A stretch of DNA of 64,000 nucleotides from a virus. Within the stretch, counting starts at the first letter, position 1. Every line of letters begins with the position of its first letter. The stretch lies in the IMG/VR virus record IMGVR_UViG_3300026088_000013; one strand, 5' to 3'. Position numbers and translations under genes: made by a program. Under the pieces are notes generated by a model, which was not told where the DNA came from, did not search any database, and saw nothing but the letters and a program-made list of their open reading frames with translations. Shown here one piece after another: positions 4,087 to 36,562 of the stretch.

Positions 4087-4118
4087 TTTGTTTAGTAAGT
4101 AAACTAGTTGTACATTTG
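4087..4118 (+). promoter_or_regulatory. Consensus Bacteroidota promoter
   Basis: TTTG 4087-4090, 20 nt spacer, TACATTTG 4111-4118. Confidence 0.8.
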
Positions 4119-4159
4119 TTATGTCATCGGTTATTAATCACTCAAAACACTTTCAGAAT

Positions 4160-4480: not shown

Positions 4481-4533
4481 CCTTTAATCACTAATATATA
4501 AATACCTGTTTAATTTTAAATCAATCCTTTACT

Positions 4534-4806: not shown

Positions 4807-4809
4807 ATC

Positions 4810-6271: not shown

Positions 6272-6282
6272 AACTCTAAATT

Positions 6283-6522: not shown

Positions 6523-6548
6523 TCAATACTTATTAATACCTATAAATC

Positions 6549-6797
6549 ATGAAACTTCACCACTTAATTATCTTAGCCCTTTGCGGATTAACATGGACAG
6601 CTTTTTACTTTAGCGGGCGTCCAGATAGCAACGCAGTCCCCTTTGAAGGACAAGACCCAACCCACGTTATAGTAGACGGGGACGAAATGCCCGGCATTGG
6701 AGCGGATAAAACTAACCCGGATACCGCATTGGTTTACTTTAACGAAACAGATAGGAAAATACATATAAAGTATTTAGCACCTTCAAAGCCCCAGTAA
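6549..6797 (+). CDS. Membrane-anchored/exported hypothetical protein
   Basis: N-terminal hydrophobic segment. Confidence 0.65.
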   Translation: MKLHHLIILALCGLTWTAFYFSGRPDSNAVPFEGQDPTHVIVDGDEMPGIGADKTNPDTALVYFNETDRKIHIKYLAPSKPQ

Positions 6798-10984: not shown

Positions 10985-11533
10985 TCAAATAAGTCCTTTT
11001 AAAAGCGCGGCCGCACCGATTTGGATGCTTATGGCTTTCGGATCGAAATGCCCATCCGCTACATACTTACCAATATTAGGCGCGTCTCCGTAATGATTTG
11101 TTGCAGCCCAAAGATAAGGCGTATTAATGCCCCTTTTAGCATATCCACCTCCATTGTATTTTTCCAGCGTTAAAAGAATATTGGGCACGCTCCAATCGGT
11201 TATTTTGGTCATACCCTGCATTGTAAGGGCGTCTACGGCGCTTTCTTCCCATGTGAAGGGTGGATTACCAGCAAGCGGCCGACCGGCAGGAACATGGGTT
11301 GTACGGGCTGTGAGCTTATCTCCGTTATGCAGATGCCGGGTGAAGTTAAGGGAGGCCTCCATATTATGGATTACGGCTATTACATACCACGGAACATGGG
11401 TTGCATTTGATACCGAAAGATAGCGTGTGCCGTTCTTTTTGATCTTAAAAAGGAGGGAGTTTATTTCGTCTTTGTTTTTCTCCCGGATGACGGCCGTATC
11501 CCAAAGCTGCTGATATTGTGCTGGTGTATTCAC
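10985..11533 (-). CDS. Endolysin, lysozyme-like (COG5526-type)
   Basis: PWYVIAVIH.ME...HLHNGD.L...VPAGRP...WEESAVDAL...LEKYNG.GY...PYLW...GKYVADG. Confidence 0.85.
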   Translation of the reverse strand: MNTPAQYQQLWDTAVIREKNKDEINSLLFKIKKNGTRYLSVSNATHVPWYVIAVIHNMEASLNFTRHLHNGDKLTARTTHVPAGRPLAGNPPFTWEESAVDALTMQGMTKITDWSVPNILLTLEKYNGGGYAKRGINTPYLWAATNHYGDAPNIGKYVADGHFDPKAISIQIGAAALLKGLI

Positions 11534-11793
11534 GGCTTCTTTGTTTTAGCCCGCGCAACACTGTCTTCCTGCTGGTAGCGGCGGTATTGTGCGTAAATTT
11601 GAGGCTGAATTGTTTCAGACAGTTCCTTGTAATCCTTCGCTGTCACCTGATCCAGCTGGCCGTTAATGACCATCAAGTACTGGTTTACCAGCCGCGCTGG
11701 TATTGTTGTAGTGTACTGCCGCTCCTGTTGTTGAGGCGACAAGACCACGCAGGTGAATAGAACTAACGCGCATAGGGTTTGCTTTATGGCCAT
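11530..11793 (-). CDS. Small exported protein
   Basis: Hydrophobic N-terminus followed by QQQ. Confidence 0.65.
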   Translation of the reverse strand: MAIKQTLCALVLFTCVVLSPQQQERQYTTTIPARLVNQYLMVINGQLDQVTAKDYKELSETIQPQIYAQYRRYQQEDSVARAKTKKP

Positions 11794-12137
11794 ACTTTTA
11801 TTTTGATGGGTTTTTTATTACCGTCTAACCATTGGAAGTGAACCGGCTCCCCGCCAATAGCGGTAAATTTATCTTTTATAATTTGCATATACCGGTTTTT
11901 ATAAATTCTTACTTCGTGTAGATACATAGCGGATACAGGATTCCAACGGCCTTTAGCGGTATCGCTGACTAAATGCCACCCTCCTATCGTGTCATATTTT
12001 TCAGGTGGTTCTTTATACACCTTTACTTTGGCGGTGTCATCGCTAGTAAGCCAGATACTATCTCCCGGCTCTTTGGTGGATTGCTGCCCCTTTACAGAGT
12101 AACCAATTACTAGCAGTATAAAAAGTAAGCATTTCAT
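11784..12137 (-). CDS. Small exported protein
   Basis: MKCLLFILLVIGYSVKG-Q signal peptide. Confidence 0.7.
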   Translation of the reverse strand: MKCLLFILLVIGYSVKGQQSTKEPGDSIWLTSDDTAKVKVYKEPPEKYDTIGGWHLVSDTAKGRWNPVSAMYLHEVRIYKNRYMQIIKDKFTAIGGEPVHFQWLDGNKKPIKIKVWP

Positions 12138-12142
12138 TTGTT

Positions 12143-12367
12143 TTACCATTTTGCTGGTTTATGTGAGTCAATATCTATGTGGGATAACCCTATTAACAAA
12201 CCCAAAACACCAACCGAAGCCCACGAGAAACAACAAATTCCTAATCCAAACGCCCTATCCCGTTCAGTATAAGTACCACTGTTAGATTTTACATAATTCT
12301 TCCACAGCGGGTATGCTACAACATAGCCGCTTGCCCAAATAAGGAATATAATAAGGTTGGTTTTCAT
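12143..12367 (-). CDS. Two-TM membrane protein
   Basis: Two hydrophobic segments. Confidence 0.65.
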   Translation of the reverse strand: MKTNLIIFLIWASGYVVAYPLWKNYVKSNSGTYTERDRAFGLGICCFSWASVGVLGLLIGLSHIDIDSHKPAKW

Positions 12368-12669
12368 TTCGTTACTTTATGTATAGCAATAATATCGTAT
12401 GACTTACCATTTACTATAAGCGTTTGTATGTGAGTATGCGTATCTGTCGTGATAGATGCTTTAGCGCCCATTGCAGGAAACGCTACATTAGATCGCGCAG
12501 TGAATTGCACTAGCCACTTAGTTCCCTTAGCACTTAAAACAACAACTGAATTGTTATTCGGAACTATGTTTTCTTGTCGAGCAATTATAGTCCAAGAACT
12601 ATCTTTTGCTTGCGCATTTGAAATAACAGTTGCAAATACGAATAGAATAGAAAGGAATATGCGTTTCAT
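12364..12669 (-). CDS. Small exported beta-rich protein
   Basis: MKRIFLSILFVFATVISNA-Q signal peptide. Confidence 0.7.
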   Translation of the reverse strand: MKRIFLSILFVFATVISNAQAKDSSWTIIARQENIVPNNNSVVVLSAKGTKWLVQFTARSNVAFPAMGAKASITTDTHTHIQTLIVNGKSYDIIAIHKVTK

Positions 12670-14403: not shown

Positions 14404-15042
14404 CTATTTAAATATTGATCTAATTACTGCACCGGTCACAGCGCCTATCCCGGCCCACAAACCTTTTCCTCTCTTAGCTTTTTTTAACGCCGCATGATCC
14501 GCTTGCCGTTGGGCTTCATAATTTCCAACCAGCTCTGATGCGGCGCTACGGGTGTTTTTTAAATCATCCCGACAATGGGCCAGTGCCGTACTATCTGCTA
14601 TTCGTAATTGTTCGTTTAAAATGAGTTGCCGGTCAAGCTCTCTGTCTACGTTCCACTTTACTTGCGCTATGCTATCTATTTGGAAAGACAAGTATTCGCA
14701 ATTTGTATATACTCGTGGGGTATCGTGCGCTATGAGGGCGCTGTGAAGCTCCTTATTAGTCGCCAGTATCACCTTACCACGGGCATCGAATTTTTGCCTG
14801 ACTTCTGCCAAGGCTTTTGATGTGGTGTCTAAGGCAACAGTAAGGTTTTGTATTAAACCGCTGTCTTGTTTATATCGTGCTTCCCCCTCTATGCTGTCCG
14901 ATTTCATTTTTTCAAGGAGGCTGTCAATAGCCTTGTCTTTAGAAGTCGGTGCGGGTACGTTGCACTCTTTGTACAGCATAATAAGTATAATGCCTACACC
15001 GATTATGGTTACTAAAACAGCGGCTAGTTTGGATATTTTCAT
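14404..15042 (-). CDS. Spanin-like coiled-coil membrane protein
   Basis: N-terminal TM, long coiled coil, basic patch then C-terminal GLWAGIGAVTG; lysis neighbourhood. Confidence 0.6.
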   Translation of the reverse strand: MKISKLAAVLVTIIGVGIILIMLYKECNVPAPTSKDKAIDSLLEKMKSDSIEGEARYKQDSGLIQNLTVALDTTSKALAEVRQKFDARGKVILATNKELHSALIAHDTPRVYTNCEYLSFQIDSIAQVKWNVDRELDRQLILNEQLRIADSTALAHCRDDLKNTRSAASELVGNYEAQRQADHAALKKAKRGKGLWAGIGAVTGAVIRSIFK

Positions 15043-15287
15043 TTGTATGCTTCTTTACCTTCCATTTCTAAATATGCCTGTGATTTACCTGAATAAAAAT
15101 ACACGCTATCCCTATTCCCTTTACTCATGCAGTCAATAGCTTTCGATATATTTAAGTTCATGCTATCAGACAAAGAATCAAAATAGCTTTTTTCGGGTTT
15201 ATTCTTTTGCAAAACTAAAGGCTTGTAAGACTGTTTGCAGCCAATGCAGAAAAGAACAATGGTTATGTATTGGATTATATTTTTCAT
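15039..15287 (-). CDS. Lipoprotein (possible outer spanin partner)
   Basis: Lipobox-like CIG-C at residue 17; overlaps spanin-like start. Confidence 0.55.
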   Translation of the reverse strand: MKNIIQYITIVLFCIGCKQSYKPLVLQKNKPEKSYFDSLSDSMNLNISKAIDCMSKGNRDSVYFYSGKSQAYLEMEGKEAYK

Positions 15288-15439
15288 TGTTTTACATAAT
15301 TAGTTAATATGGCAGAGGCAACATATCCCAACGTCCGAACGCGCCTTTTAGCAATTGCCTCCAACTTTTTTTTAACCGTAGGAGTAACCCGCACAGGTAC
15401 AATTTCTGATTTAGTCTCTTTTTTCTCCTTTTCTTTCAT
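15284..15439 (-). CDS. Ribbon-helix-helix (Arc/CopG-like) regulator, 51 aa (not in track)
   Basis: SEIVPVRVTPTVKKKLEAIAKRRVRTLGYVASAILTNYV; ATGA overlap with 15287. Confidence 0.8.
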   Translation of the reverse strand: MKEKEKKETKSEIVPVRVTPTVKKKLEAIAKRRVRTLGYVASAILTNYVKQ

Positions 15440-15463
15440 ATTGTATGCAAAGTATACATTTAT

Positions 15464-15494
15464 TTTGGACTATCAAAAATATTTTTTACCTTTG
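15464..15494 (+). promoter_or_regulatory. Consensus Bacteroidota promoter
   Basis: TTTG 15464-15467, 19 nt spacer, TACCTTTG 15487-15494. Confidence 0.8.
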
Positions 15495-15541
15495 TTTTCT
15501 CTACTAATCAGCCCCGAAGGGGTGATAAAGAGGGATTACCA

Positions 15542-15574
15542 GCCCGGACGCGTGATAACGTTCGGGCATTTTTT
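15542..15574 (+). terminator. Terminator/attenuator hairpin in leader
   Basis: gcccggacg/cgttcgggc 9 bp stem, then atttttt, 11 nt before ATG 15586. Confidence 0.6.
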
Positions 15575-15585
15575 AAACATTTATA

Positions 15586-15960
15586 ATGGATAATTGCATA
15601 GAATATAAGTGTAAATGCACCCGTGCGTGTGACTTATTAAATAGATGTGTATTTACTCACCCTTTAATAGAAGGTGATTACTTTCAAGTATTGGAGTTGT
15701 TAAATCGGATTCATGGCGAAAAAGATAAACTTCGGGCAATATTGAACTTTTTTCATAAAAAACAGCCCCCAAAATATCCAACCAAACCTTTAATGCTTAA
15801 AGGACGGCGCGGAATGGCTAAGAGATTTCAAAAGGAATTAGGGAGACGAGCAATGACACAACTCAACGCAGGCATGGAAAGGGGGCGCACAATGAAAGAG
15901 TTAAATGAAATAAAAGAAGCGTTTCATAAAATTATTCAGCAAACTGGTAATAAGTTATAA
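15586..15960 (+). CDS. Hypothetical protein, counter-oriented moron-like gene
   Basis: 124 aa, own promoter and downstream hairpin, N-terminal Cys cluster. Confidence 0.65.
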   Translation: MDNCIEYKCKCTRACDLLNRCVFTHPLIEGDYFQVLELLNRIHGEKDKLRAILNFFHKKQPPKYPTKPLMLKGRRGMAKRFQKELGRRAMTQLNAGMERGRTMKELNEIKEAFHKIIQQTGNKL

Positions 15961-15961
15961 T

Positions 15962-15992
15962 AAAAAACCGGGCTAAGTACCCGGCTTCTTAT
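15962..15992. terminator. Bidirectional terminator
   Basis: A6-ccggg-ctaagta-cccgg-cttctt between convergent genes. Confidence 0.7.
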
Positions 15993-16191
15993 TTTTTCTC
16001 AAGTGCCTTTCGCGCCACCTTATATCTTGCCAACTTTTAATGCAATAAACTACAAATCGGGCACCCATATATAAGGCACCCAAACCAAAAAGAATAGCCG
16101 CTTTCCAGTCCCCAAGGTTAAGGAGTATGCCCCATACAAAAGACAGGATGCCCAATCCGTTTATCATCCCTATGATTAATTTTGTTTCCAC
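15973..16191 (-). CDS. Holin-like two-TM protein
   Basis: Two TM segments and basic C-tail RWRERHLRKNKK; start GTG 16191 or ATG 16167 (upstream part of track ORF is overlap). Confidence 0.55.
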   Translation of the reverse strand: METKLIIGMINGLGILSFVWGILLNLGDWKAAILFGLGALYMGARFVVYCIKSWQDIRWRERHLRKNKKPGT

Positions 16192-16565
16192 AGACGGCGT
16201 AGGTCTTTTATAGATAGGAAAAGAATGATACCTACGACTATCTCCCACAGCATAGTGATAGCTGGTTGCACGTTGATGTCCATCCCTAGAGAATAGGCTA
16301 TTATGTCCCATATAAAACGAATTGTAGCCAACCCAAGAATCAGGCTGATATATAACCGGAATTTCTTTTTTAACAAGAGCAACAGAAAAAGTGCTAAAAT
16401 ATCCTTTCCCTTGTCCCACAAGAAATATGCTTCCGTCCAGCCTTCTTTAGAGAAATCGGCCTTAGTTAAGAAAATCAATATTCCGACTATAAACAATGCA
16501 ATAAATATGCCTGTTAAAGCGTCACTAAGGCGTTTTTGGCCCGGTTGGAGGTCTGTCCCCTCCAT
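16176..16565 (-). CDS. Four-TM membrane protein
   Basis: Four hydrophobic segments; start uncertain (ATG 16565, 16571 or 16583). Confidence 0.7.
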   Translation of the reverse strand: MEGTDLQPGQKRLSDALTGIFIALFIVGILIFLTKADFSKEGWTEAYFLWDKGKDILALFLLLLLKKKFRLYISLILGLATIRFIWDIIAYSLGMDINVQPAITMLWEIVVGIILFLSIKDLRRLWKQN

Positions 16566-16686
16566 TGTCATCCAATTCCTCATCTTCAAGCGTAGATGCC
16601 TGATTTTCTTCTTTATCGGGTTCAATAATCGAAAAGGAGCCATCTTCGTAAACGGTTAGGATGAGTTTTATCTTTTTCTTTGCCAT
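16525..16686 (-). CDS. Acidic peptide ending GGDRPPTGPKTP (53 aa, not in track)
   Basis: MAKKKIKLILTVYEDGSFSIIEPDKEENQASTLEDEELDDNGGDRPPTGPKTP; AT-rich start context. Confidence 0.6.
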   Translation of the reverse strand: MAKKKIKLILTVYEDGSFSIIEPDKEENQASTLEDEELDDNGGDRPPTGPKTP

Positions 16687-16738
16687 TGTAAAAATAATTG
16701 ATAGTTATGAGATTATATACCGTGAAATATCGGGATTT

Positions 16739-17161
16739 TCAGAGTTTCGGATCTTTGGGCTTAGCGGCGGGCGTGGGGGTGTCTAGGGTTCCATCTACCT
16801 TATCGCTGTTGGTTGTTTTATAATCAATGGCAGCGTCAAACCGTTTGTTTACGGAGCTGAACAATTTTGACAGCATAAGATTGCCCCCCAATCCCAATAA
16901 CAAAAAGAACCCTATGACGAATAAATCTGCGTAATTGGCCGCTTTAGTGCCCACTCTATAAGGAAGAGCTATCCACGCCGCCAGAATGAGGAGGAGATTA
17001 CTTGCAGGTACGTACCAATCTTCCAAAAAAGCGGCCTTGTTACTGAATTCAAGATTTGCTAGTCTGGCTTTCTCCTTTAACCTTTTGAGCGTCCAAAATA
17101 CGCCGATAACTAATCCGATAAGGCCCACGAACAAACACGCTGTTGATAACGGTAATTTCAT
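16739..17161 (-). CDS. Three-TM membrane protein, holin candidate
   Basis: Three hydrophobic segments, charged C-tail. Confidence 0.55.
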   Translation of the reverse strand: MKLPLSTACLFVGLIGLVIGVFWTLKRLKEKARLANLEFSNKAAFLEDWYVPASNLLLILAAWIALPYRVGTKAANYADLFVIGFFLLLGLGGNLMLSKLFSSVNKRFDAAIDYKTTNSDKVDGTLDTPTPAAKPKDPKL

Positions 17162-17173: not shown

Positions 17174-19402
17174 TTAGTTTGCTAACTGAATGGCGCTGAA
17201 TGGCGTTACCCACAGCAACGCGCCGGACTTGCCAAAGAAAAATGTCGGCTGCTCATCCTGCGTGGTCAAAAATAAGCTATTTAGTAATACAGGAGCCGTG
17301 ATACTCGTCCCATACAAAGCCGTGAATGACGGTACATACTTCTCCACCAAACTGTTCTTGCGATAGCCGATGCGTATCGTCTGGTTGCTTGCACTTGCTG
17401 CCTGCTGGCTGTTCTTCCACACAATGTCACAAATGCTGTCGGTGAGCCGTCCTGTGGCGCTATCTACCTTCTGCCAGTACTGGTGATGCAAGCCGGTCGT
17501 ATCGGCTGTGCCGGTAGCGCTTACCAGCCTGTACCACTTTAACCGGTTATAAATACTGGCCCGGTAGTACCACCACGGCGTAGGGGCGTGTAAGGCGAAG
17601 GGGGGCCCATTGTCGCGGTCATTTATGCGGCCGTAGCTCCTGAACAAGTTGGGGTAATTCGTCGTACCGGCGAACTCATTCATCATGTTAAACTCGTTAT
17701 AGCCGATCACCGGGGTTTCGTTCATTATAAGCTCACAACGGGCCATCATAATGGCTTTGTAGTGCAGTGAATCAAAACTACCGTGCCCCGGACTGCATCC
17801 CAAATCCCACGGATAGGATGCCTGTGTGGCGTCGATGGAGGGTGTCCCCCAATTGCCGTACCCCTGCTCTGTACAGTAAATAGCGAAGGACGTATCCCCA
17901 TCGGTATAGTTGTACACGGCCCTGCTGTACGCTATATAGGTGGCGGCAAGCCCTATGAGATTATCGCCTTCGGGAGAGCGCCCATAACCGCCTACCTGCT
18001 GCGCGGTTGATGGGCCATATCCCAAGTAATTAACACTACGCGGGTAGTGGTGGAAGTTAAAGGCGCTCACCGGGATGACGTGATCAGCTCTTAAAATACG
18101 ACTGAACCATACGAAGTTGTCCACCCATAGGCTGTCATATTCTGTGGTGCCGGACATTACCAGTTTCATCGTTGAACTGTAAGCGCGTAAACTATCCCAA
18201 TTCATTGAGGTGCGTAGCCAATAGCACAGACCGGACACGGTATAGTTATCCTCGTTACCGTTCTCTACATAGCTGATAATACTTTGCCATTGATTTGCAT
18301 ACCATCCGAAAAATTTTGAATCACGGGTATAATTATAACTTTCGGTTTCGCCGTTCCAGTTGTCTGTATTGGCGTAGGAGCCCGGATGTGTTTGATTCAG
18401 ATAATTAGAGTTTCCCCGAATACTCCACCAAAATTTCTTACCGGTTCTTTTATAAAATGGATATTGTGTTGGCCCGATATCCGAAAAGTAGTCGAGCGTA
18501 AAGGTGGCCGATGCAGTCGTAGTTTGAGCGCGGGTTGTGTCCCAATATCCGTGATCACCATACACCCGCACCATGCCGTCATAGGCAGAGTTTAGCGTAT
18601 CAATGCCGTTGCCTAGATTTGTACCTGTGAACTCCCCATAGGTATTAGCTCGTGGCGTAGCGCCGGTATACGTATCCGGTCGTTTGTCCAATGCTGTTGT
18701 ATCGTAATTATATGTGCCGTAGATAGACAATTCCGCAAAATCAGGAATGGTGAAATAACTTGTCCTATTTTTTTTGACCGCCCGGATCATCAGGTAACGG
18801 CAATTAACGTTACAAGTAGTGCTTACCCACGCACCGGGAGCCGAAGGGTTGACGGTAGTGACTATTTTAGCAAAAGCCGTCAACATAGAATCCGGCCGCG
18901 CTAAATACCATGATCGGTCACTGTATGCCGCCCGGAACATCACATCAAGATTATAAAAATAAAGCGTGTCCCCTGCATCAAAAGTGGCATTCCAGCCCCA
19001 CAAGTCAGTAATGTTTACAGTGTTTGTCGTATCCTCCATGTTTCGTGCGCCAGTCATGTCAAAAATTATATTCAGCCCTCTATTTCCCGGATAGTTATTA
19101 CCGTTAACTACGCCTTGTTTATAATAACTATCATACATGTGGCGAGGAAGCCCGAAGATGGTATCGAGGCCAATGCCGTTGGGTATTGCAGTGACGCCGT
19201 TGAGCGGATCAACTTGCCCAAAGAAGTTGAAAAACCCTTGCATTTTTGACTGATCTCCGCTCGGGACTGAAAATCCTACCCATTCCCGGAATATTTTGGG
19301 TTTGATAGGTGCCTTGGTAAACATCTTGCGCGCCGGAACAGCGCTAAAGTTGATTACCGTCAAGACAAAAAGTATTCCCAGTATTACATATAGATTTTTC
19401 AT
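17174..19402 (-). CDS. Exported clan GH-A glycoside hydrolase with N-terminal discoidin/CBM32-like domain
   Basis: Signal peptide; RYLMIR...FAELSIYG; YVENGNE (acid/base), AFNFHHY, IYCTEQGY (nucleophile). Confidence 0.7.
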   Translation of the reverse strand: MKNLYVILGILFVLTVINFSAVPARKMFTKAPIKPKIFREWVGFSVPSGDQSKMQGFFNFFGQVDPLNGVTAIPNGIGLDTIFGLPRHMYDSYYKQGVVNGNNYPGNRGLNIIFDMTGARNMEDTTNTVNITDLWGWNATFDAGDTLYFYNLDVMFRAAYSDRSWYLARPDSMLTAFAKIVTTVNPSAPGAWVSTTCNVNCRYLMIRAVKKNRTSYFTIPDFAELSIYGTYNYDTTALDKRPDTYTGATPRANTYGEFTGTNLGNGIDTLNSAYDGMVRVYGDHGYWDTTRAQTTTASATFTLDYFSDIGPTQYPFYKRTGKKFWWSIRGNSNYLNQTHPGSYANTDNWNGETESYNYTRDSKFFGWYANQWQSIISYVENGNEDNYTVSGLCYWLRTSMNWDSLRAYSSTMKLVMSGTTEYDSLWVDNFVWFSRILRADHVIPVSAFNFHHYPRSVNYLGYGPSTAQQVGGYGRSPEGDNLIGLAATYIAYSRAVYNYTDGDTSFAIYCTEQGYGNWGTPSIDATQASYPWDLGCSPGHGSFDSLHYKAIMMARCELIMNETPVIGYNEFNMMNEFAGTTNYPNLFRSYGRINDRDNGPPFALHAPTPWWYYRASIYNRLKWYRLVSATGTADTTGLHHQYWQKVDSATGRLTDSICDIVWKNSQQAASASNQTIRIGYRKNSLVEKYVPSFTALYGTSITAPVLLNSLFLTTQDEQPTFFFGKSGALLWVTPFSAIQLAN

Positions 19403-19441: not shown

Positions 19442-19473
19442 ACAGGGGTAATGGGAACTACCCCTGTTTTTTT
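19442..19473 (+). terminator. Hairpin with U-tract on the + (antisense) strand
   Basis: acaggggta/tacccctgt 9 bp stem then tttttt. Confidence 0.5.
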
Positions 19474-22400
19474 ATGGTGCTACATAAGTGTATGAAAAAC
19501 TAAATCCAATTGAAAAAGTGGCTGTGCCGGGCGCGTAATACGAAACACTTGCATTCCCGCTTCCTGTATCAGCAGAAATTCCACCGGAAGTTCCCGTAGA
19601 AGCAGTTACGCCCATATGCCCTGATAAATCATACACTGAACCAAAAGTGGATATTCCGGTTGGCAAACTTATATTGAATGCCGTAATAGTTGCTCCGGCT
19701 GTAGCCGTAACATCTACCGTTCCCTCTACGAATACCTCATCTCCGATTCTATGCCAGTGTGTCTTTCTGCCAGTACTACTTGCTACGTTGGTTCCATTAG
19801 TTATAGTCGGCGTGTACGTTCCCGATGTAACATTCGCATCTGTAAATAGTGTTGATAGTGGAATTTGCGCTACTGAGCTATCAGTATTATGCACCAATAA
19901 TGTATATCCTGATATGGCCGGCTTTGTTCCATTTAGTTTAAATAACCCTGTGGATGTGCCGGTAAAAATAAGATTATTTGAGCCTAACGTAAGCGTAGTA
20001 TTTCCCGTTAATGCACCGCCTAAAACAATATGATTTGTACTATCTGCATCAGTTGTTGCTGTTAAACCATTATCGGCTTTAAGTGTCTTTGAGGCCAATG
20101 TGTCAGTAGGCAGTACGTATACCGTGTTTAAACCGCTACCGGCGTTTATAACGTTTAATGTCCCTCCGCCGGAAATGGAGCTTTGCGCTACTTTCCTCAC
20201 TATACTATCAGCACCAATGACTAATATCGAATCTGTGCCAACGCCCACTCCGGTGAAACCCATTTTTAATTTTCCGAACAAGTTTAATGCAACCGAATCA
20301 ACAACATTTTTTACGATAAGCTGCCCCGGTGCCAGTTGAGTGTTAGAAGATACTACGACAGGTGAGCCTATCTGCCATTTACCATTTGTGTATCCGATTG
20401 CCGACATAGCATTACCTGCAATTAAATGCAGTTGTCCATATTGGTCTGCGGTTTGCGTTGAAGCCAATGTTGTATTACCCGTACCGGGATTGTATAATTC
20501 CACGTAGCCATTCGGGCCGCTCATCCGATTATTCGTAGTTCCATCAATAGACAGCCCGCTTCCTACTTGTAAATCAGAAGTAACCTTTGCATTTCCTATA
20601 ACAAGAAAGTTAAAAGTAGTCGGCACGGTGCAATTGACGCATACGTTCTGCCCCAGCTTCGCATATTGACCATCGTTTTTAAATGCCCATTCTTCTAAAC
20701 CGGTATGACCGCCATCGTTGAAGGTTGCGTTAATCCATAGCGCAGCATGTTTTTGATTGTCCGCGCTGTAGTTTATTATAGGGTTTATAATAGTTGAACC
20801 GGTCAATGTTGCTGCGGCTGTAAAAGAACCGCTAAACGCGTTCGTATTTGTATAAGTGTTGTTTCCGTATAGAAAAGATATGTCACGCACACTTGATTTA
20901 GTTACCTTATTATCAACGCCTATTCTTAGAAATTCGTCATTGGGCCCTGATGCTATAGCGGTGTTTATGTACGTAGAATACGTTGCCGTTGGCAGTATTT
21001 CCGGGGCATCGGCCATTATCTTTGAGGCAATGGCGTAATGCCCTGCGTCATTGGGGTGAATCCCGTCGCTTTGGTATTGAGATTTCCAACCCGTTCCACT
21101 CCTAAGAATGTCAAACGTATTTATATATTTCAACGACCTACGGGTAGCGATAGCCAGTAGTGTATCATTGTAGGGCGTTAGATCTACGTTATTATTTGGG
21201 CATGCCGATACTATAATGGCGGTTATTGAGTGCAATGCGAGACTGTCTAATATACGATTTATATTAACGCTAAAAGTCGGCGTTGTAACAAGCGCTTGCG
21301 CGTCATTCACCCCTATATTCAGTAATGCATACTGCGCTCCAAGGGTGCCTATTTCTGCCAAATTAGAAACGACATCGGCACTTTTATCTCCGGGGCCGCC
21401 GCTTATGTTATAAAAGCTCCTGTCTGGAAACATTGTTCCCACGTAGGACGTAGAGATAGAAGCGGCATTAAATCCAGCTGTGATAGAGTTTCCTATCACC
21501 ACAGTGCCGCCCATGCGTTCGTTACTCTCTATTTTATCCAGTGTATAATGTTGGTGGCCTCCGACAAACCAGAGCATAAATTGCCCTGAATTGCTTTCGT
21601 AGCTCATGCCCAAGGGCGGCCCGTAAAAAGCCTGTGTCTTAGCCCCACTCGTCAGGTTTGTCAGCGTAGCTACGTATACGTTGTCCAGTCGTTCGATGGT
21701 TCCTAACAGACTATCGTTGTTGTTTATTTTTATTGACGGAGAGGTGGATAATATTGTACCAGCAATATTTTGTCCCTCCAACAAAGTTATCGTACCTCTT
21801 GTAGCGGCCCTTAAATCAAAGTACGCAAATATAGAAGCCGCGAAAAAGGTAGAGGTGCTATTGGTGCCAATGGCTACGCCGTAACTGCTGCTGGTTGAAT
21901 CAATCGCCGTGAATCGTATTGACTTCTTCCATTGGGTGCGGCCAGTATGCTGGTTTAAAACAATGTAATCGTTTGTGTTATTTGTTCCCCCCGTTACGTC
22001 CATATATGTACCCGGAAAAGTTATTGTCACAGTAGCCGTTGCAGCTGTGTATGTCGCTGGCAAAGATCCAACTGCAAAACTTTGATTCACCAATGTACCG
22101 GCTATAGTCGGGGGAGTCCCCATAATAACGTCCTGATTAAACCGTTTTGAGCTGTTGATGGTGTCCTTATCGCGTACATCGGTTCCTATTACCTGCAAGT
22201 TATTGCTGGCCGTTGTGATACCTCCGCCGCCTCCACTGCCATTCGCCGCTGCTGTAATCCGCCCCTTGCTATCCACGGTAATGTTTGCACTCGTATAACT
22301 GCCGGGTGTTACGGCGGTATTGGCTAAAGTTGCTGCCGCACTTCCGGGCCCTGTTGCCGTAACATCTCCTGTGAGTGCGGTAATATAGTTACCTGCTGGT

Positions 22401-23530
22401 TGTTTGTTATTAAAGGTAGTCCAATCTGTGTTGGATAGTTTACCTGTATTTGTGCCGGATGCTACAGGTAAGTTAAAGGTATGAGTAGCCGTGGCTGACG
22501 ATATATTAAAATCAGTTCCGCTTGTTCCTGTTGCGAATACTTGGGTTGCAGCAGTCAATGTATTAAGATTAGTTATCCCCCCTCCTCCACCCCCACCAGA
22601 TCCATACCCTTGTTGTTTTACCCATTCAGTTGTTGCTACTCTATTTGAACTATCTAACAGCCCCATTGTAGTTGCAGTAAGTGTATCAAGTATAGTTACC
22701 GGATGATAGAACTTAGAGGCCAATGCCTTTACTGAAAATAGGGCTGTTGGGCTTTCTATCCCTACCGAATCACCTCCCGTAATATTCACATAACTAGGAG
22801 CAAATAGAACCGTAGCTTGCCCTGCATCGGAAAATATTTTAGTCCTTATTAAGTATCTTACATCGAAGTTGTGGATATTGGTGAATAGCAAGTTTTCTGA
22901 TCCTACACTACCCGTCAAGGTCGTATTAGCGTCTATTAATGTACCCCCCAATTTTGCATTACTACCCGTAGCGGTCAACCCATTAGAGACTGTTTTTAAC
23001 TGATTAATGACTGAAAAAGATCCCCCGGAGGTCATGGTGACATCTCCTCCCGGCGTAACTTGCGCCGCATTTCCAGACAAGTCCCCGGCCCATATTTTAC
23101 CCGTAGCAAGTGTATTTTGGAGTTTCCCAGCTATTGATGCGCGAAGATTTAACTTGGCAGTATCTACCCTATAATTGGTTGCAAATACTGTACTATCCGT
23201 AGACCCTCCTACGGTTTGTATGAATTTTAAACAGCTATCCAATGTGCAATCTTGAAACCAAAAAATACCGGTATGCCCTGCTGTGTCTACATAGATAGGG
23301 AATCTACCACTACGATATTTTGCCAAATTAAGATAGGACAAAACCTCTGCCCTATTAGCATAATTTCTATAAACAAACGTCGATGAATTAAAATATTGTG
23401 ACCGGCTATCAGTAGGAACAGCTTGAGCTACTCCCAAAGCATCATTGACGGTGACATGAATAGCTGGATTATATTGCGCTTTAGAAAAAAAGCCAATTAA
23501 AAGCAATAGTGCTGTTATTATTCTTTTCAT
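19472..23530 (-). CDS. Tail fibre/spike with SGNH esterase domain and N-terminal Sec signal peptide
   Basis: Fibre motifs GKLSNTDWTTFNNKQ and GSYTSANITVDSKGRITAA; SGNH blocks GNSITAG, GVND, DGIHPN; fibre-type C-end HRIGDEVFV; SP MKRIITALLLLIGFFSKA-Q. Confidence 0.8.
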   Translation of the reverse strand: MKRIITALLLLIGFFSKAQYNPAIHVTVNDALGVAQAVPTDSRSQYFNSSTFVYRNYANRAEVLSYLNLAKYRSGRFPIYVDTAGHTGIFWFQDCTLDSCLKFIQTVGGSTDSTVFATNYRVDTAKLNLRASIAGKLQNTLATGKIWAGDLSGNAAQVTPGGDVTMTSGGSFSVINQLKTVSNGLTATGSNAKLGGTLIDANTTLTGSVGSENLLFTNIHNFDVRYLIRTKIFSDAGQATVLFAPSYVNITGGDSVGIESPTALFSVKALASKFYHPVTILDTLTATTMGLLDSSNRVATTEWVKQQGYGSGGGGGGGITNLNTLTAATQVFATGTSGTDFNISSATATHTFNLPVASGTNTGKLSNTDWTTFNNKQPAGNYITALTGDVTATGPGSAAATLANTAVTPGSYTSANITVDSKGRITAAANGSGGGGGITTASNNLQVIGTDVRDKDTINSSKRFNQDVIMGTPPTIAGTLVNQSFAVGSLPATYTAATATVTITFPGTYMDVTGGTNNTNDYIVLNQHTGRTQWKKSIRFTAIDSTSSSYGVAIGTNSTSTFFAASIFAYFDLRAATRGTITLLEGQNIAGTILSTSPSIKINNNDSLLGTIERLDNVYVATLTNLTSGAKTQAFYGPPLGMSYESNSGQFMLWFVGGHQHYTLDKIESNERMGGTVVIGNSITAGFNAASISTSYVGTMFPDRSFYNISGGPGDKSADVVSNLAEIGTLGAQYALLNIGVNDAQALVTTPTFSVNINRILDSLALHSITAIIVSACPNNNVDLTPYNDTLLAIATRRSLKYINTFDILRSGTGWKSQYQSDGIHPNDAGHYAIASKIMADAPEILPTATYSTYINTAIASGPNDEFLRIGVDNKVTKSSVRDISFLYGNNTYTNTNAFSGSFTAAATLTGSTIINPIINYSADNQKHAALWINATFNDGGHTGLEEWAFKNDGQYAKLGQNVCVNCTVPTTFNFLVIGNAKVTSDLQVGSGLSIDGTTNNRMSGPNGYVELYNPGTGNTTLASTQTADQYGQLHLIAGNAMSAIGYTNGKWQIGSPVVVSSNTQLAPGQLIVKNVVDSVALNLFGKLKMGFTGVGVGTDSILVIGADSIVRKVAQSSISGGGTLNVINAGSGLNTVYVLPTDTLASKTLKADNGLTATTDADSTNHIVLGGALTGNTTLTLGSNNLIFTGTSTGLFKLNGTKPAISGYTLLVHNTDSSVAQIPLSTLFTDANVTSGTYTPTITNGTNVASSTGRKTHWHRIGDEVFVEGTVDVTATAGATITAFNISLPTGISTFGSVYDLSGHMGVTASTGTSGGISADTGSGNASVSYYAPGTATFSIGFSFSYTYVAP

Positions 23531-24381
23531 TATTCTGAATATATTACTGAATATGGTGATTGAACAGAATCCCCTTTTGATACTACGTATTTTTTAGTGG
23601 CAATAGTAGCAATAGGATTATACGCCGTCCCCGGAATGGGCCCATAATTGAATCCAACTATATTTACCCATGATACCATATCGGCTTCTGCTACAGGGTA
23701 TCTTACCACTCTATATTTATTGTTGGCTGATAATGCAGGCCACGGAATAACAATTGGCCCTCCCGGATTAAAATTAACTGAACCTAAATATGTTAAATTA
23801 TCAGTTCCGGTAGATATGTCAGGCCACGGGTCTGTATCTCCCCACCACCAATTCGCAACAAGTTGTGCAATATTTACTGTCAAAGTTGCGTTCACACTTG
23901 TTAATACTTGTCCATTAGCATCGGTAATTACGCAAGAGTATGCCCCCGCATCCCCTGAATCCACGTTTGTTAAGTTAAGGGTTGGGTTTGTTTCTCCACC
24001 AATAGGCGTTCCATTAAATCGCCATTGATAAGAGTACGGTTGTGTTCCACCGGCTACTGCCACTAAGAAACTGGCATTATCTCCACTATCTACTGTCAAA
24101 TTGGTTGGTTGAATAATGATTATAAATGTCGTTATCGGTGGGACTGGTGTAACATTTCGCCCTCTAGATAATGCGTACATATAATTAGCCGTAGATTCCA
24201 AACTAGCATCATTCGGGCTTTGATCATACTTCCATTGAACAGATCGACGAACAAGATATAATAACCGTACATATCTATTGACGGAAGTTCCCCCGTTAAA
24301 TATTTGCCTATTTGCATTAACATAGGCATCTACCTCTTGAGCGACTTCGGCATATTGAAGGTATAAAGGGACGTCAACCAT
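23530..24381 (-). CDS. Virion protein with I-set immunoglobulin domain
   Basis: QPTNLTVDSG...YQWRFNG...LNLTNV...DAGAYSCVITD. Confidence 0.8.
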   Translation of the reverse strand: MVDVPLYLQYAEVAQEVDAYVNANRQIFNGGTSVNRYVRLLYLVRRSVQWKYDQSPNDASLESTANYMYALSRGRNVTPVPPITTFIIIIQPTNLTVDSGDNASFLVAVAGGTQPYSYQWRFNGTPIGGETNPTLNLTNVDSGDAGAYSCVITDANGQVLTSVNATLTVNIAQLVANWWWGDTDPWPDISTGTDNLTYLGSVNFNPGGPIVIPWPALSANNKYRVVRYPVAEADMVSWVNIVGFNYGPIPGTAYNPIATIATKKYVVSKGDSVQSPYSVIYSE

Positions 24382-24888
24382 TTAAAAGAATTTATTTTGG
24401 TTAACTATATAGTTCCTTGCACGATCAATAGCAGCCTGCGCATTTACAATACTTCCATAAGTAACAGATAATTCTACATTTGACACTTCCGTATACATAT
24501 TGCTTAAACTGCTATAATATTGTTCATCATTTATTATTGCGGCATTGGCAGAAATATCTTGTACTCTTTCGTAAATAAATTGTTGGGTATAGCCTGTAAA
24601 TCCGTATAAAGTTGTTTCTGTATAAGTGCTAGGTGCAGCCAACGGGCTACTAGATACCCATACCACCGTTATATTAAGGGCATAATCTTTTGGCAGTAAG
24701 TCAACAGTAATAGTAGCATCTGCAATGGGCCATACTATATAAGACGAAGTTAATAGGGAGCCATTTGCTTTATATGGATAAATACGGCGTTCAGTCAAAT
24801 TCCCATCCGAACCCGTACTTGTATCGGTGAATAGCACATCGCTATTATTAGGGTTTTGTACTGCTGTGAAGGCTCCATTAAATGACAT
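24382..24888 (-). CDS. Putative virion/fibre adaptor protein
   Basis: 168 aa, beta-rich N-half, position in tail module. Confidence 0.55.
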   Translation of the reverse strand: MSFNGAFTAVQNPNNSDVLFTDTSTGSDGNLTERRIYPYKANGSLLTSSYIVWPIADATITVDLLPKDYALNITVVWVSSSPLAAPSTYTETTLYGFTGYTQQFIYERVQDISANAAIINDEQYYSSLSNMYTEVSNVELSVTYGSIVNAQAAIDRARNYIVNQNKFF

Positions 24889-32138: not shown

Positions 32139-35100
32139 TTAAAAGTTTCTAGGGTTTGGTTGCCACGTAACATATGGAGCAAAGAACCATGCAAAATTTG
32201 AAATTCCATACCTGAATTTTACCCTAATCCAATTTCCAGTTAAAAAATCACCTTCCACAAGGGCTAGTTGTGTATTTTGCATACTAGCCTTATCCCGTAA
32301 AAATGACGCATACCTGACATTATCCATTATTTCATAATCCGATGCCAATAATGTACTGTATTGCTGGATACCGGTTTGCGGATTAATCATTGATGTTACG
32401 ATATCAAAGTTTGTATTATTATCCCAAACCCGATTGCTTTGGTATGCTACATTATTATACGTTTTCTTGATAGCCTCTTTGTCATTGAATACCAGATCTA
32501 TCATTGAATAATAAGTCGTCCCGTAAAAGGTGTTTCTGTTTATTTCATCGTTATGAATATATAATTGACCATTTAACCATGAAAAAACGGTGTCTTCTGC
32601 GGATGCCATCCAATCAGGTGTGAAATCATAAAAGCAGGAATACGCATTTCTTTTTTCATTAAACCCAAATACATTCGCTTGCGTCTCTGTAGAGTTTTGC
32701 AAATAACAAACATATTCTTCTTCAAAATAATCATAATATCCTAATACATTTGAGCGACTACCGTTTGCTCTTAATAGGTCTTTGCTATAAGGAGTTAGTA
32801 GGTTTTTAATGGTATATTGGCCCTTATACAATTCCGATATAGGTATAATTCCATCATTACTCAACCTTAACTGATATCCTCGTATGGGATCGACGAAGTA
32901 ATCCTGAATTTTCCCGTGGACAATGCTTTCGGGCCGGTTATACACTCCGTATTCACCGGAATAATATTGAACATTATTGGACGTGATTATACTATCCGTT
33001 GTGGTAAGGGTATTTTGCCCGCTACTATCCTGTATGAACTTCGCATAAATACCCATTTGAAAACAATATCTTTCCTGCCACCCTCTTAAAATTCTATCTC
33101 TCACCTTCAGCTTTTTAATTGCTCCTTTGCCACGGTCAAGGGTATCAAAATCAGTAGAATAAAACCGATTGCTTTGATTTATATTGGTGTCCACCAAATA
33201 AGACTGCCCCCACCTTAATAGTGTCGGGAAGGTTACAGTAGCGGCATTCGGATCATGGATTAATTGTCTCCCGTTTGAATTTACGGCGCTAGGATAAAAA
33301 TCAGAAAAATTAGGGTCTATCATTCCTTGGGAAAAGAATTGCTGGCTTGTAATTGTCAAATTAGTTGTCGCCATACTCCTCGTGTGGTCAAAATCCGGAT
33401 ACGAAAACCCTAAAGGGGTTACAAATTGGCCGGTTGTTAATGTAAAGGTAGTATCAACCAAAAATGTATATGTATTTGCTTTTGAATTATCAAATACGGG
33501 GCTTAATGCAATGACCGCTCCATCACTTCTCTGTAATAAAAATTGATACAAATCATCCGATCTATCATCTGGAAATGTTATTTGCAAAGTGCCTTGTATT
33601 CTAAAGGTATAATTTCCAGAAACTACCTTTAAAACCAATCGGGATGAATTAGAAAAAGACCAGCCTATAAGATTGTTATAGGGTGACGTTCCGGTTTGTA
33701 TATTCGGATCGTTATACGATATACTTGTGGGGGTCATGCCTAGTGTAACTCGTCCTGCATTACCATCGGCTCCACCCCCCGGAGAAATCGCATATATAAT
33801 CTCCACGCCGGTATTAACCTTCCGCTCTCTAAAATAGTAATCCCCTTTAGTTAAAATGAAGGTTGCTGGTGTTACTAAGTTAGAAGTTTGGTTCTGTGTT
33901 TGGCCCTGATGATACTGATTCCCCGTTCCCGGAGATATAATATCATAACGTTCGCTAAATTCAAAATACGCATCCAATCCATTGGCTACCGGTTGTGCCG
34001 GGCTATACAATTCAATGAAATAATTATTAAACCCTGTACCGAAATCGAACGTACCGCTTGTAGCTGGTAGTATTATTTTAATGAATTGTCCGGTTTGTTG
34101 AACGCCATTTATTATTGGATTTAAAAGCTGTCCTTGAATCTCAAAATCCTTGTCTGTATAAACCGGATTTACTAATGACAAGTTAAATAGTTTAATAAAC
34201 CTAATCCTGTCATTGGCCGAAAACTGATAAGTTAAAGGGGAATTGGGATTGTTTTTTACAAAGGTATTAAGATTTTCAATAGATATGTACGCGTATTGAA
34301 CCCCCGAAGATGAAACACTGGCATCCTTAATAGTCCTATCGCTTATCCATTGTGTTATTTTTGATTTGGATAGGTTTTTAGTTCTTACTATCCGAAATGA
34401 TCTGGCCCAAAGAGGGGGCCTATGGTAAATATTTAATGTAAACTTGGGCAACTGTAATACAAAACTAACTTCCTCGTATTTGTTAGATTGTACGGCCATC
34501 TGCACATTTGTGTCTATGCCATTTGTGCGCATCTTTTCATCTGCGTACTCTATCCCAAAATCATAATTACTCCACCAATCATAAACGGCATAAGAGCTTT
34601 TATCCGTAATAAGGGTAGAAGACTGAATTGAATTATACCTGTCTAATACGGTGGCAGCTTTGATTATAAATAAGTTATTATTGTCAGAGCTTATTACAGT
34701 AAATCCATTACTTACCGCGCTTGCCGCTAATCCACTAATCACATTAGCGGATGATTCGCCAACGCCAGCCGAATAAGATACCGTTGTCGCTCCAAAATAA
34801 GCGGCAAAGAAATCTGCCTGTGATATTTTACCGGCAACCACCATATGAACAACTCCACTCCCATTAGCTGTATCGCCTCCTTGTGTTGCGATGAACAAAA
34901 AGAATTTATTTGTTCTATTAACCTCTATTTTATCAGAGGCAACGTTGGTTGTATTAGTGCCATTGGTTAATTGGGTTAAGTTTGGATAGCCTTCTGTAAT
35001 ATTGGCGTAGATAAGGGTATTCCCATTTAATATTTCTTGTGCTTGAGCTGCTTGTGGCACTAAGTCAAATAGTAAAATACTTTCATTAATAAGTGGATTG

Positions 35101-36017
35101 GTGTTTGTTTCTACATAATTGTATTGTTTGTCATTATAGAACCGGAACAAATAAATATCATTGCTAGGTATATTTAATTCAGCTTTGTTAAGAACGGCAA
35201 TCGTAAAGAAATCACTAAACCCATTCCCCACACTAACGGCTGCCGCAATTTCTATTTTTTTTACATTAGGTTTACCCGTTTGTACGACTACGGCTATATC
35301 TGCGTTTTTTGTCGGGTCTGCATCATTGGTATTATCAAATGGATTTAATGGTAATGGCAATTCACTGTGTTCCCCCCAAGTACTTTTATCATTATCATCA
35401 AACCATTCCCTTGCCTTGAATACAAACAGCTTTTTCCGCATGTTGTTGACGGTAACAGTAGGGTCGTCTTCATAGGATACTATCGGCGGGATGCTTGGGG
35501 GTTCTTTTGCCACATCTAAATAAGACCTTTCAATAGTTCCATACCCACCGGACAATGCCCGGTCAATATTTATTTTACAGGGTTGGCCTTGACAATTAAG
35601 GAAGTAATAAATATCCCCTTGTGTATTGTCGCCATATATTATCCCAACATGAATTATTGGGTGCAGCAAATCAAAATTCAAGATATCCCCGCTAGTTCCG
35701 GAGTTACTTTTAACTATTCTTTGAATGGTTCCCGTAGAGAGTTGATAAAAATATATTCCATGATTTCCGTTGGAATTATAATTGTGATAAATAAGTCGGC
35801 CTTTAACTTGATCGTAGTAGTGCCCTATACAAACGTTGGTTCCGTCTGGTAAATCAGTATTCGGTATAAGAGTAGTGCCGGGGAGGTTTTCTATCCTCAT
35901 GTGCGGCGGCGTCCCTCTAAATCTTATGTTCCTAGCATTAGCATGATGAACCGAAGGAATTATTTCTTCCGGGTCGTCCAAATTCATTATGCCTGCTATT
36001 TGTTTTGCTTCTATCAT
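32139..36017 (-). CDS. Tail nozzle/muzzle (stabilization) protein
   Basis: 1292 aa beta-rich; MNLDD...ARNIR N-terminus; QYYSGEYGV..PES; FNEKRNAY.CFYDF.P. Confidence 0.8.
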   Translation of the reverse strand: MIEAKQIAGIMNLDDPEEIIPSVHHANARNIRFRGTPPHMRIENLPGTTLIPNTDLPDGTNVCIGHYYDQVKGRLIYHNYNSNGNHGIYFYQLSTGTIQRIVKSNSGTSGDILNFDLLHPIIHVGIIYGDNTQGDIYYFLNCQGQPCKINIDRALSGGYGTIERSYLDVAKEPPSIPPIVSYEDDPTVTVNNMRKKLFVFKAREWFDDNDKSTWGEHSELPLPLNPFDNTNDADPTKNADIAVVVQTGKPNVKKIEIAAAVSVGNGFSDFFTIAVLNKAELNIPSNDIYLFRFYNDKQYNYVETNTNPLINESILLFDLVPQAAQAQEILNGNTLIYANITEGYPNLTQLTNGTNTTNVASDKIEVNRTNKFFLFIATQGGDTANGSGVVHMVVAGKISQADFFAAYFGATTVSYSAGVGESSANVISGLAASAVSNGFTVISSDNNNLFIIKAATVLDRYNSIQSSTLITDKSSYAVYDWWSNYDFGIEYADEKMRTNGIDTNVQMAVQSNKYEEVSFVLQLPKFTLNIYHRPPLWARSFRIVRTKNLSKSKITQWISDRTIKDASVSSSGVQYAYISIENLNTFVKNNPNSPLTYQFSANDRIRFIKLFNLSLVNPVYTDKDFEIQGQLLNPIINGVQQTGQFIKIILPATSGTFDFGTGFNNYFIELYSPAQPVANGLDAYFEFSERYDIISPGTGNQYHQGQTQNQTSNLVTPATFILTKGDYYFRERKVNTGVEIIYAISPGGGADGNAGRVTLGMTPTSISYNDPNIQTGTSPYNNLIGWSFSNSSRLVLKVVSGNYTFRIQGTLQITFPDDRSDDLYQFLLQRSDGAVIALSPVFDNSKANTYTFLVDTTFTLTTGQFVTPLGFSYPDFDHTRSMATTNLTITSQQFFSQGMIDPNFSDFYPSAVNSNGRQLIHDPNAATVTFPTLLRWGQSYLVDTNINQSNRFYSTDFDTLDRGKGAIKKLKVRDRILRGWQERYCFQMGIYAKFIQDSSGQNTLTTTDSIITSNNVQYYSGEYGVYNRPESIVHGKIQDYFVDPIRGYQLRLSNDGIIPISELYKGQYTIKNLLTPYSKDLLRANGSRSNVLGYYDYFEEEYVCYLQNSTETQANVFGFNEKRNAYSCFYDFTPDWMASAEDTVFSWLNGQLYIHNDEINRNTFYGTTYYSMIDLVFNDKEAIKKTYNNVAYQSNRVWDNNTNFDIVTSMINPQTGIQQYSTLLASDYEIMDNVRYASFLRDKASMQNTQLALVEGDFLTGNWIRVKFRYGISNFAWFFAPYVTWQPNPRNF

Positions 36018-36562
36018 TATAAATATTCCACTAGATATCCCTTAATAGATTTCCTAGTTCCATTTAAAACATTACCGATAGCACCACTACTTGTGTTAAA
36101 GTATTTTGCTGCTGATAATCCCGAATTAAAAGAAATCGTACTATGGTCTTTGATTAACACTACAGGTTTCCTAGATTTATGTATTCTTTCTTTGAATAGC
36201 CCATTATTAATGGCATGTTCCATATTGTATGAATTATCACACCATTCCAAGTTTTCAACTCTATTATCGGTTTTAATACCATTGATATGGTTGACTTGGG
36301 GATTATTTTGTGTATTTTTAACCCACCCATTAGCTACAATCCTATGAACAACCAAAGTACGATCTACTCCATTTTTACACAACATAACTGTTAAATAACC
36401 CTTTCCGTTGGGAGCACTTTTAAGAATACGGCCTTTTCTCTTTATAGCGCCCTTCGTAGGATGATTTATTACCCTATCAATACTTCTAATATTACCCATA
36501 TTAGAAACTTCATAATAGCCTTCGTAATCTTTTATTGTTTTCCATAATTCAATCATAACCAT
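36017..36562 (-). CDS. NUMOD4-HNH homing endonuclease
   Basis: WKTIKDYEGYYEVSNMGNIRS; VNHINGIKTDNRVENLEW. Confidence 0.92.
   Translation of the reverse strand: MVMIELWKTIKDYEGYYEVSNMGNIRSIDRVINHPTKGAIKRKGRILKSAPNGKGYLTVMLCKNGVDRTLVVHRIVANGWVKNTQNNPQVNHINGIKTDNRVENLEWCDNSYNMEHAINNGLFKERIHKSRKPVVLIKDHSTISFNSGLSAAKYFNTSSGAIGNVLNGTRKSIKGYLVEYL

Follow-up and report, generated by a model that had tools for sequence, protein, structure and literature searches.

A receptor-binding tail fibre with a cleavable Sec leader in a crAss-like podovirus: a candidate for two-compartment assembly in Bacteroidota phages

The morphogenesis of tailed phages, fibres included, is taught as a purely cytoplasmic process, and the classical fibres and tailspikes, such as gp208 of phage Det7, the receptor-binding protein (RBP) of Listeria phage PSA, the lactococcal RBPs and the fibres of R-pyocins, have no signal peptide and are assembled in the cytoplasm. 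A receptor-binding virion protein which bears a Sec leader and is matured outside the cytoplasm is known in the filamentous phages, namely pIII, but these phages assemble at the membrane and are extruded, while the phage considered here is a tailed, lytic podovirus that packages its DNA with a terminase. The subject of this work is a fibre gene found in a stretch of 64,000 nucleotides (the window, meaning the whole DNA that was analysed) under the IMG/VR virus record IMGVR_UViG_3300026088_000013. Its product, P0001, is a mosaic protein of 1352 amino acids encoded at 19472-23530 on the minus strand. As in the classical fibres, we find a modular mosaic with a putative N-terminal anchor and an enzymatic middle, the fold of a trimeric C-terminal head (Z 7.5-9.6), and a gene located at the end of the structural module; the difference is that P0001 and about three quarters of the listed members of its family carry a cleavable leader together with sequons for O-glycosylation.

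Both of these features have their described counterparts among the cellular proteins of Bacteroidota. The substrates of signal peptidase I (SPase I) in this phylum follow the Q-rule, a Gln at position +1 that is specific to them (PMC5837995, PMC10653852), and they share with P0001 the basic n-region, the hydrophobic core, the small residues at -3 and -1 and the Gln at +1. The motif D-[ST]-[AILVMT] is the O-glycosylation sequon of the phylum, used in the periplasm and enriched in non-cytoplasmic proteins (PMC12871550, PMC8550257; the general system is also covered in PMC8729774), and the enrichment of about 2.5-fold which we observe for the fibre family is the same as that in host non-cytoplasmic proteins. 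The described substrates of the two systems are however envelope proteins of the host, while here the protein is the receptor-binding fibre of a tailed phage. In fact, phages are not mentioned in the review of O-glycosylation (PMC12871550), and some Q-rule proteins of unknown function are reported in Porphyromonas phages (PMC10367356). A similar architecture, as compared from the description alone, is found in the MAT fibres of Bdellovibrio bacteriovorus, where a signal peptide is followed by a conserved N-domain and by a mosaic shaft and tip resembling phage fibres; these are nevertheless cellular proteins, which the predatory proteobacterium has on its own surface or vesicle, and they are encoded outside phage structural modules (PMC10769870).

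Among tailed phages, a precedent comes from Cellulophaga phage phi18:3 (Pachyviridae, NC_021794.1; positions 892-6584 of our locus L019), whose large terminase (TerL) is a distant relative of that of the window phage. Three consecutive proteins gp085-gp087, encoded just before the lysis genes, each have a leader ending in Ser or Ala and followed by Gln, and in the record, which invokes 'experimental MS/MS proteomics analysis' (MS, mass spectrometry), they are labelled virion, structural or tail proteins, this GenBank annotation being the sole basis. They show that leader-bearing proteins at such a genomic position can occur in purified particles of a Bacteroidota phage. On the other hand, they have no sequence similarity to P0001 and no Pfam domains, and no paper discussing their leaders was found. 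As a whole, the literature searched does not describe tail fibres of tailed phages that are exported by Sec or glycosylated by the host. The initial annotation, which had been made from the sequence of the window, put the system forward as a candidate for an undescribed one, and this holds for the literature searched, while the public records of phi18:3 already list leader-bearing proteins as virion proteins detected by MS. What we add here are leaderless homologues that start at the cleavage site, a leader-dependent sequon contrast within one family with controls, a conserved leaderless partner domain (hereafter A5) on different virion scaffolds, and the RBP-head fold of the fibre tip.

The explanation towards which we lean, though only modestly, is that P0001 is a Sec-exported, processed and O-glycosylated receptor-binding fibre that joins the cytoplasmic particles on membrane breach. 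The evidence begins with the leader itself, since the initial annotation of a signal peptide of the SPase I type with Gln at +1 is borne out by the sequence as well as by conservation throughout the family. The N-terminus reads MKRIITALLLLIGFFSKA|QY, where a basic n-region (K2 and R3) precedes the 12-residue h-region IITALLLLIGFF and then S16-K-A18, with Ser at -3, Ala at -1 and Gln at +1; the predicted cleavage is SKA|Q19, and the Sec/SPase I signal peptide is accordingly assigned to residues 1-18 (23477..23530, minus strand). The open reading frames lie as first annotated, namely 1352 aa at 19472-23530, 283 aa at 23530-24381 and 168 aa at 24382-24888, all on the minus strand. Because the ATG of the fibre gene has one base in common with the stop codon of the upstream gene, which encodes an immunoglobulin-like (Ig) protein, in the overlap TAATG, this ATG is taken as the natural start; a start downstream of the hydrophobic stretch was considered and is ruled out by the coupling of ATG and stop together with the conservation of the leader in the family.

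The family was gathered by a word-based search and an exhaustive HMMER search with residues 1-330, the latter giving 385 representatives at E <1e-3 in which the N-domain lies almost always at the extreme N-terminus. About three quarters of the members inspected start with a basic and then hydrophobic leader. Where the leader meets the N-domain, all but one of the 125 members that bear a leader have Gln at +1, 120 of 124 (97%) have A, G or S at -1, and Q19 is invariant in the family alignment. A minority of the homologues are leaderless and start with MSYNPS, MAYNPS or MPYNPS, which is just the predicted mature N-terminus of the others; in the three contexts fetched, in-frame stop codons lie directly upstream of such starts, so that these homologues are truly without a leader. 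P0080 ('MAQTYNPS') looks like an exception; its start, however, was miscalled, and this conceals a normal leader. With the Gln at +1 in 124 of 125 members and with leaderless homologues beginning at the predicted mature end, the leader cannot be regarded as a matter of chance. Moreover, the well-supported branches of the N-domain tree imply that the leader was gained or lost at least four times. In temperate siphovirus-like phages, the leaderless members come last in the tail module, behind genes of the tape-measure-like and distal-tail kinds, and they have pectate-lyase beta-helix domains. As for the reach of the family, neither P0001 nor its N-domain has a match in the cultured-phage collection even at E 1, a profile search of genome contigs with the N-domain alignment gave no confirmed relative, and a scan of IMG/VR with the alignment A3 gave four loci only. 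In one related phage (L012, 49-9501), two leader-bearing fibres of 1154 and 931 aa with the same N-domain are present, separated by a leader-bearing protein of 330 aa and followed by a leader-bearing beta-helix protein of 733 aa ahead of the lysis genes.

The second line of evidence is the distribution of the O-glycosylation sequons. P0001 has 15 of them where 6.3 are expected, and the 742-aa protein encoded next to it downstream has 13 where 2.6 are expected, while 11 cytoplasmic proteins of the window stay at or below expectation, except for the portal with a marginal excess (5 against 2.0). Over the family, the members with leader (n=123) have 1277 sequons against 517 expected, a ratio of 2.47, and those without leader (n=19) have 20 against 34 expected, a ratio of 0.59; past residue 200 the two ratios are 2.43 and 0.31, respectively. 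Five control motifs give ratios of 0.5-1.2 in the leader-bearing members, and for them the contrast between members with and without leader is absent. The same tendency is seen for other proteins of at least 250 aa in the same phage loci, with a ratio of 2.94 for those bearing a leader (n=9) and of 0.84 for those without (n=60). That the enrichment tracks the leader both within the family and in unrelated neighbours argues that these proteins reach the periplasm. Taking together the Q-rule leader, the leaderless starts at the cleavage site and the sequon enrichment that follows the leader, we consider the export of the leader-bearing fibres very likely as judged from sequence, and the export and periplasmic modification proposed in the initial annotation gain strong support from the same three observations.

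The same annotation had also pointed to Cys pairs that could form disulfides. The pairs do exist, as C95/C100 and C964/C967, but maturation by disulfides is not supported: C95/C100 occurs in only 3 of 22 aligned homologues, C964/C967 sits in an insert which the closest homologue of that region lacks, and the Cys content is independent of the leader, being 0.35% with and 0.36% without it. A disulfide-driven export was rejected on these grounds.

Behind the leader, P0001 shows the layout of a fibre. The conserved mature N-domain, a probable virion-docking domain, covers residues 19-106 (23213..23476, minus strand), as delimited by the 385 cluster representatives and by the AlphaFold2 (AF2) model. 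The model of residues 1-340 is confident only in the leader helix and in residues 40-105, which form a small alpha/beta domain (pLDDT 81-88), and the fold search with residues 1-340 gave no clear match (VIA-align Z 5 or less, and BFVD matches with low TM-scores). Then follow a shaft with Gly-rich hinges and fibre repeat modules, recognised by mosaic sharing (residues 107-470; 22121..23212, minus), and a middle domain of unknown fold, which the alignment to the family members P0119 and P0007 shows to be inherited with the esterase block (residues 473-670; 21521..22114, minus). A PDB sequence search and a Pfam search on sub-regions matched nothing, and residues 473-670 have no Pfam match. The SGNH/GDSL esterase occupies residues 677-838 (21017..21502, minus), with Ser682, Asn742, Asp822 and His825 as catalytic residues. 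The presence of an SGNH esterase with Ser/Asp/His, noticed at the outset, is confirmed by PF13472, which matches residues 678-831 with 63.1 bits where the cut-off is 32.9 (E 6e-17; PF00657 with E 5e-6), and the catalytic blocks are intact, namely GNS682, SGGPG (710-714), GVN742D and D822GIH825 (D-x-x-H). A distal shaft, for which the monomer model is of low confidence (residues 839-1232; 19835..21016, minus), leads to the C-terminal knob, assigned as receptor-binding from AF2 and VIA-align (residues 1233-1352; 19475..19834, minus).

The knob agrees with the fibre-type C-terminus that had been annotated, since its fold matches viral as well as phage receptor-binding heads. The last 120 residues are modelled by AF2 with pLDDT 70-87, and seven other family members end in the same tip. 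With VIA-align, the matches are the avian reovirus sigmaC head (Z 10.8, with 114 residues aligned at an rmsd of 2.6 A), the C-domain of the Det7 tailspike (Z 9.6), the Listeria phage PSA RBP (Z 8.2), the lactococcal RBP head (Z 7.9) and the R2 pyocin fibre tip (Z 7.5), with adenovirus knobs and reovirus sigma1 also among them; Foldseek puts the same proteins on top with weak E-values (best 8e-3). Moreover, the protein is a mosaic in which residues 1-430, 473-1099 and 1098-1352 each have different nearest relatives. The first part matches P0005, P0006 and P0016, the second aligns with P0119 (36% identity) and P0007 (24%), and the third is 53% identical to the C-terminus of P0018, while a module at 319-440 is common to many other family members with 52-80% identity. 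In the homologues, the modules found behind the same N-domain include GDSL, pectate-lyase beta-helix, DUF5907 and PTL_trimer; the N-domain is thus kept across 385 clusters while the C-terminal parts vary. The fibre gene is the last one of the structural module of a crAss-like podovirus, no further fibre-like gene was found anywhere in the 74-kb genome, and the fibres of Cellulophaga phage phi38:1 have no counterpart there. The RBP-head fold, the mosaic build and the genomic position all support the view that P0001 is the receptor-binding tail fibre of the phage.

If the fibre is exported, its partners on the particle merit attention. As initially annotated, the adjacent Ig protein of 283 aa (P0002) and the 168-aa protein are without signal peptide. 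The former has an Ig domain at residues 88-168 (23878..24120, minus; PF13927 with E 8e-12, and PHROG matches to Hoc-like and major-tail Ig proteins) and ends in the A5 domain at residues 160-283 (23533..23904, minus), a probable docking platform for the fibre in view of its conservation upstream of the fibre gene. In 11 contexts, A5, that is the last 120 or so residues of the Ig protein, makes up the C-terminus of the gene directly upstream of the fibre, whether the fibre has a leader or not; it accompanies the fibre in all 12 contexts with readable upstream DNA, and it is fused to a major-tail-like protein in a siphovirus-like phage (L011). None of the A5-bearing proteins has a leader. The 168-aa leaderless protein (24382..24888, minus) is likewise a conserved partner, with homologues at the same position in L002, L003 and L010 (E 1e-18 to 1e-44). 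For A5 itself, the atlas search gave no usable match and the word-based homologue search gave close relatives only. In a leaderless siphovirus-like relative (L007, 2508-3185), the fusion partner of A5 is a head-closure (Hc1-like) protein rather than the product of the gene next to the fibre, which hints at neck-attached fibres.

The pattern of A5 and fibre is what would be expected of a virion-borne docking platform and its fibre, though co-occurrence is not proof. From the leaderless homologues closing siphophage tail modules, from the A5 partner and from the leader-bearing proteins recorded by MS in phi18:3, we infer that the fibre is on the virion, where it may be attached via its N-domain. 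The gene on the other side of the fibre, encoding the 742-aa protein (17174..19402, minus), is a second candidate for an exported glycan-active protein: its N-terminus is hydrophobic without a clear Gln at +1, its sequence is rich in sequons, and it has no Pfam, PHROG or NCBIfam match. At its position the relatives have unrelated and diverse leader-bearing proteins of 485-1037 aa. The N-domain is absent from the leader-bearing enzymes that neighbour the fibre, namely the 742-aa protein here and esterase-like, beta-helix and fn3 proteins in relatives. These neighbours suggest that such phages send out an entire set of glycan-processing proteins, some of which may work unattached in the envelope.

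Putting these elements into one scheme, the fibre would be translated together with its docking partner by translational coupling, made as a Sec preprotein and translocated across the inner membrane of the Bacteroidota host. SPase I would cut before Gln19, which would then probably be cyclised to pyroglutamate, and the 15 D-[ST]-[AILVMT] sites would be O-glycosylated by the general periplasmic system of the host. The fibre would be held in the periplasm, away from the cytoplasmic glycan precursors open to its esterase, an enzyme that probably de-O-acetylates the host surface glycan. The A5 domain on the leaderless Ig protein would stay in the cytoplasm on or with the particle, and because this partner would remain there, fibre and finished particle would have no contact until holin lesions or lysis unite the two compartments. 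The leader with its conservation, the sequon signal, the folds and the synteny are observed, while the cleavage, the glycosylation, the docking to A5, the presence in the virion and the timing of joining are all inferred steps of this scheme; that docking takes place only after the inner membrane breaks is plausible, given a docking partner without leader. In its general form, the scheme would describe a large group of Bacteroidota tailed phages with a two-compartment assembly, in which exported, pyroglutamate-capped and O-glycan-coated fibres snap onto a leaderless docking domain at holin opening, and this generalisation could in our judgement equally well prove right or wrong.

Several points weigh against this picture. 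A joining after lysis would dilute the partners and seems inefficient. Co-occurrence is all that speaks for a docking of the N-domain to A5, and A5 could be one of those decoration domains which virion proteins commonly bear. Cleavage, glycosylation and presence in the virion are without direct evidence for P0001 or for its family, which no cultured phage carries. The proteins gp085-gp087 of phi18:3 belong to other families and are not rich in sequons, having one site each where 2.7-3.9 are expected. A test of leader against sequon density by phylogenetically independent pairs comes down to 3 supported pairs and cannot reach significance, so that the association is strong in the raw data while repeated co-evolution is not yet proven. 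Finally, the leader-bearing neighbours without N-domain suggest a wider set of exported enzymes that is not necessarily bound to the virion. It is this last point which keeps alive the idea of a fibre that is exported without being a part of the virion. Such a protein would be a free adhesin-esterase of the periplasm or envelope that removes or covers the receptor glycan on the infected cell and, together with the neighbouring exported enzymes, gives superinfection exclusion or stops the progeny from sticking to debris. Enzymes with leader and without N-domain do adjoin the fibre in most relatives, the Sec-exported MAT fibres of Bdellovibrio with the same layout are cell or vesicle proteins (PMC10769870), and proteomic evidence is absent for the fibre family. 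However, the genome would then have no recognisable RBP, and it would be left to explain why the N-domain occurs without leader on classic tailspikes that end tail modules, why the leader-bearing phages keep the leaderless A5 partner in translational coupling, and why the tip has an RBP-head fold. We therefore hold this alternative to be unlikely, though it deserves serious consideration.

Two other alternatives concern the leader and its destination. The leader might not be used for export at all but act as a transient tether to the inner membrane, or as a propeptide cut by another protease, with folding and joining both in the cytoplasm. For instance in Porphyromonas phages, the removal of signal-peptide-like N-termini from capsid proteins has been ascribed tentatively to prohead proteases (PMC10367356), and the leaderless homologues of P0001 make it clear that the mature form is able to function from the cytoplasm. 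Such a role is nevertheless improbable in the face of the near-perfect fit to the -3/-1 rule of SPase I and to the Q-rule, and of a sequon enrichment that follows the leader in the family and in unrelated neighbours alike. Otherwise, the type IX secretion system (T9SS) might carry the fibre, as a cargo that the phage encodes, to the outer surface of the infected cell, as the host phylum has this system and P0001 combines a Sec leader with a conserved domain at its extreme C-terminus. Yet P0001 has no NCBIfam match to the T9SS sorting domain of type A (TIGR04183) or type B (TIGR04131) at E up to 0.1, and the best fold matches of its C-terminus are viral and phage receptor-binding heads, which leaves this route a very slight chance.

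Should the preferred explanation of an exported fibre that joins the particles at membrane breach be true, it would have several consequences. A new assembly checkpoint would be tied to lysis. Host genes for Sec, signal peptidase, glutaminyl cyclase and O-glycosylation would be dependency factors of the phage, with a bearing on resistance, host range and phage therapy in Bacteroidota. The progeny would bear host-made glycans on the very organs of host recognition, and the enzyme of the fibre would be kept from the cytoplasmic glycan precursors. In practice, recombinant fibres or depolymerases made in the cytoplasm of E. coli may lack the native modifications, and the receptor-binding proteins of this group would escape annotation pipelines in which a signal peptide excludes a protein from the predicted virion proteins. 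The pairs of leader-bearing and leaderless members in one family provide a natural experiment for testing the export model.

As regards the phage itself, bases 1254-64000 of the window correspond to one end of a 74,033-bp IMG/VR virus record which is rated complete; bases 1-1253 have no match in that record, and a 120-bp inverted repeat is present at both of its ends. Its genes include a large terminase, a portal, a GroEL and several PHROG families annotated as 'virion structural'. TerL is 25-27% identical to the terminases of Cellulophaga and Flavobacterium podoviruses. A protein of 1292 aa (32139-36017, minus) has the C-terminal domain of the crassvirus muzzle (PF25729) and resembles gp097 of Cellulophaga phage phi38:1, and the gene order around it is that of gp097-gp101 in that phage. 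On account of the terminase identities, the muzzle domain and the phi38:1 gene order, the element is assigned by its sequence to the crAss-like or Pervagoviridae-like podoviruses, with a Bacteroidota host. The likeness of the 1292-aa protein to both PF25729 and gp097 also ties Pervagoviridae-like phages to the crAss tail architecture.

Some further observations were made along the window. Between the fibre module and the genome end, a run of small open reading frames at 11530-12669 and 14404-17161 (minus) shows leaders ending in Gln, lipoprotein-like N-termini or transmembrane N-termini; they presumably comprise lysis genes and genes for further envelope proteins. A gene for an HNH homing endonuclease (36017-36562, minus; PHROG 59, E 8e-45) is located between structural genes, directly upstream of that of the 1292-aa protein. 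The phage-encoded GroEL lies at 47575-49998 (minus; PHROG 5725, E 5e-128) with a small GroES-like open reading frame downstream (48114-48383), as is likewise seen in Cellulophaga phages.

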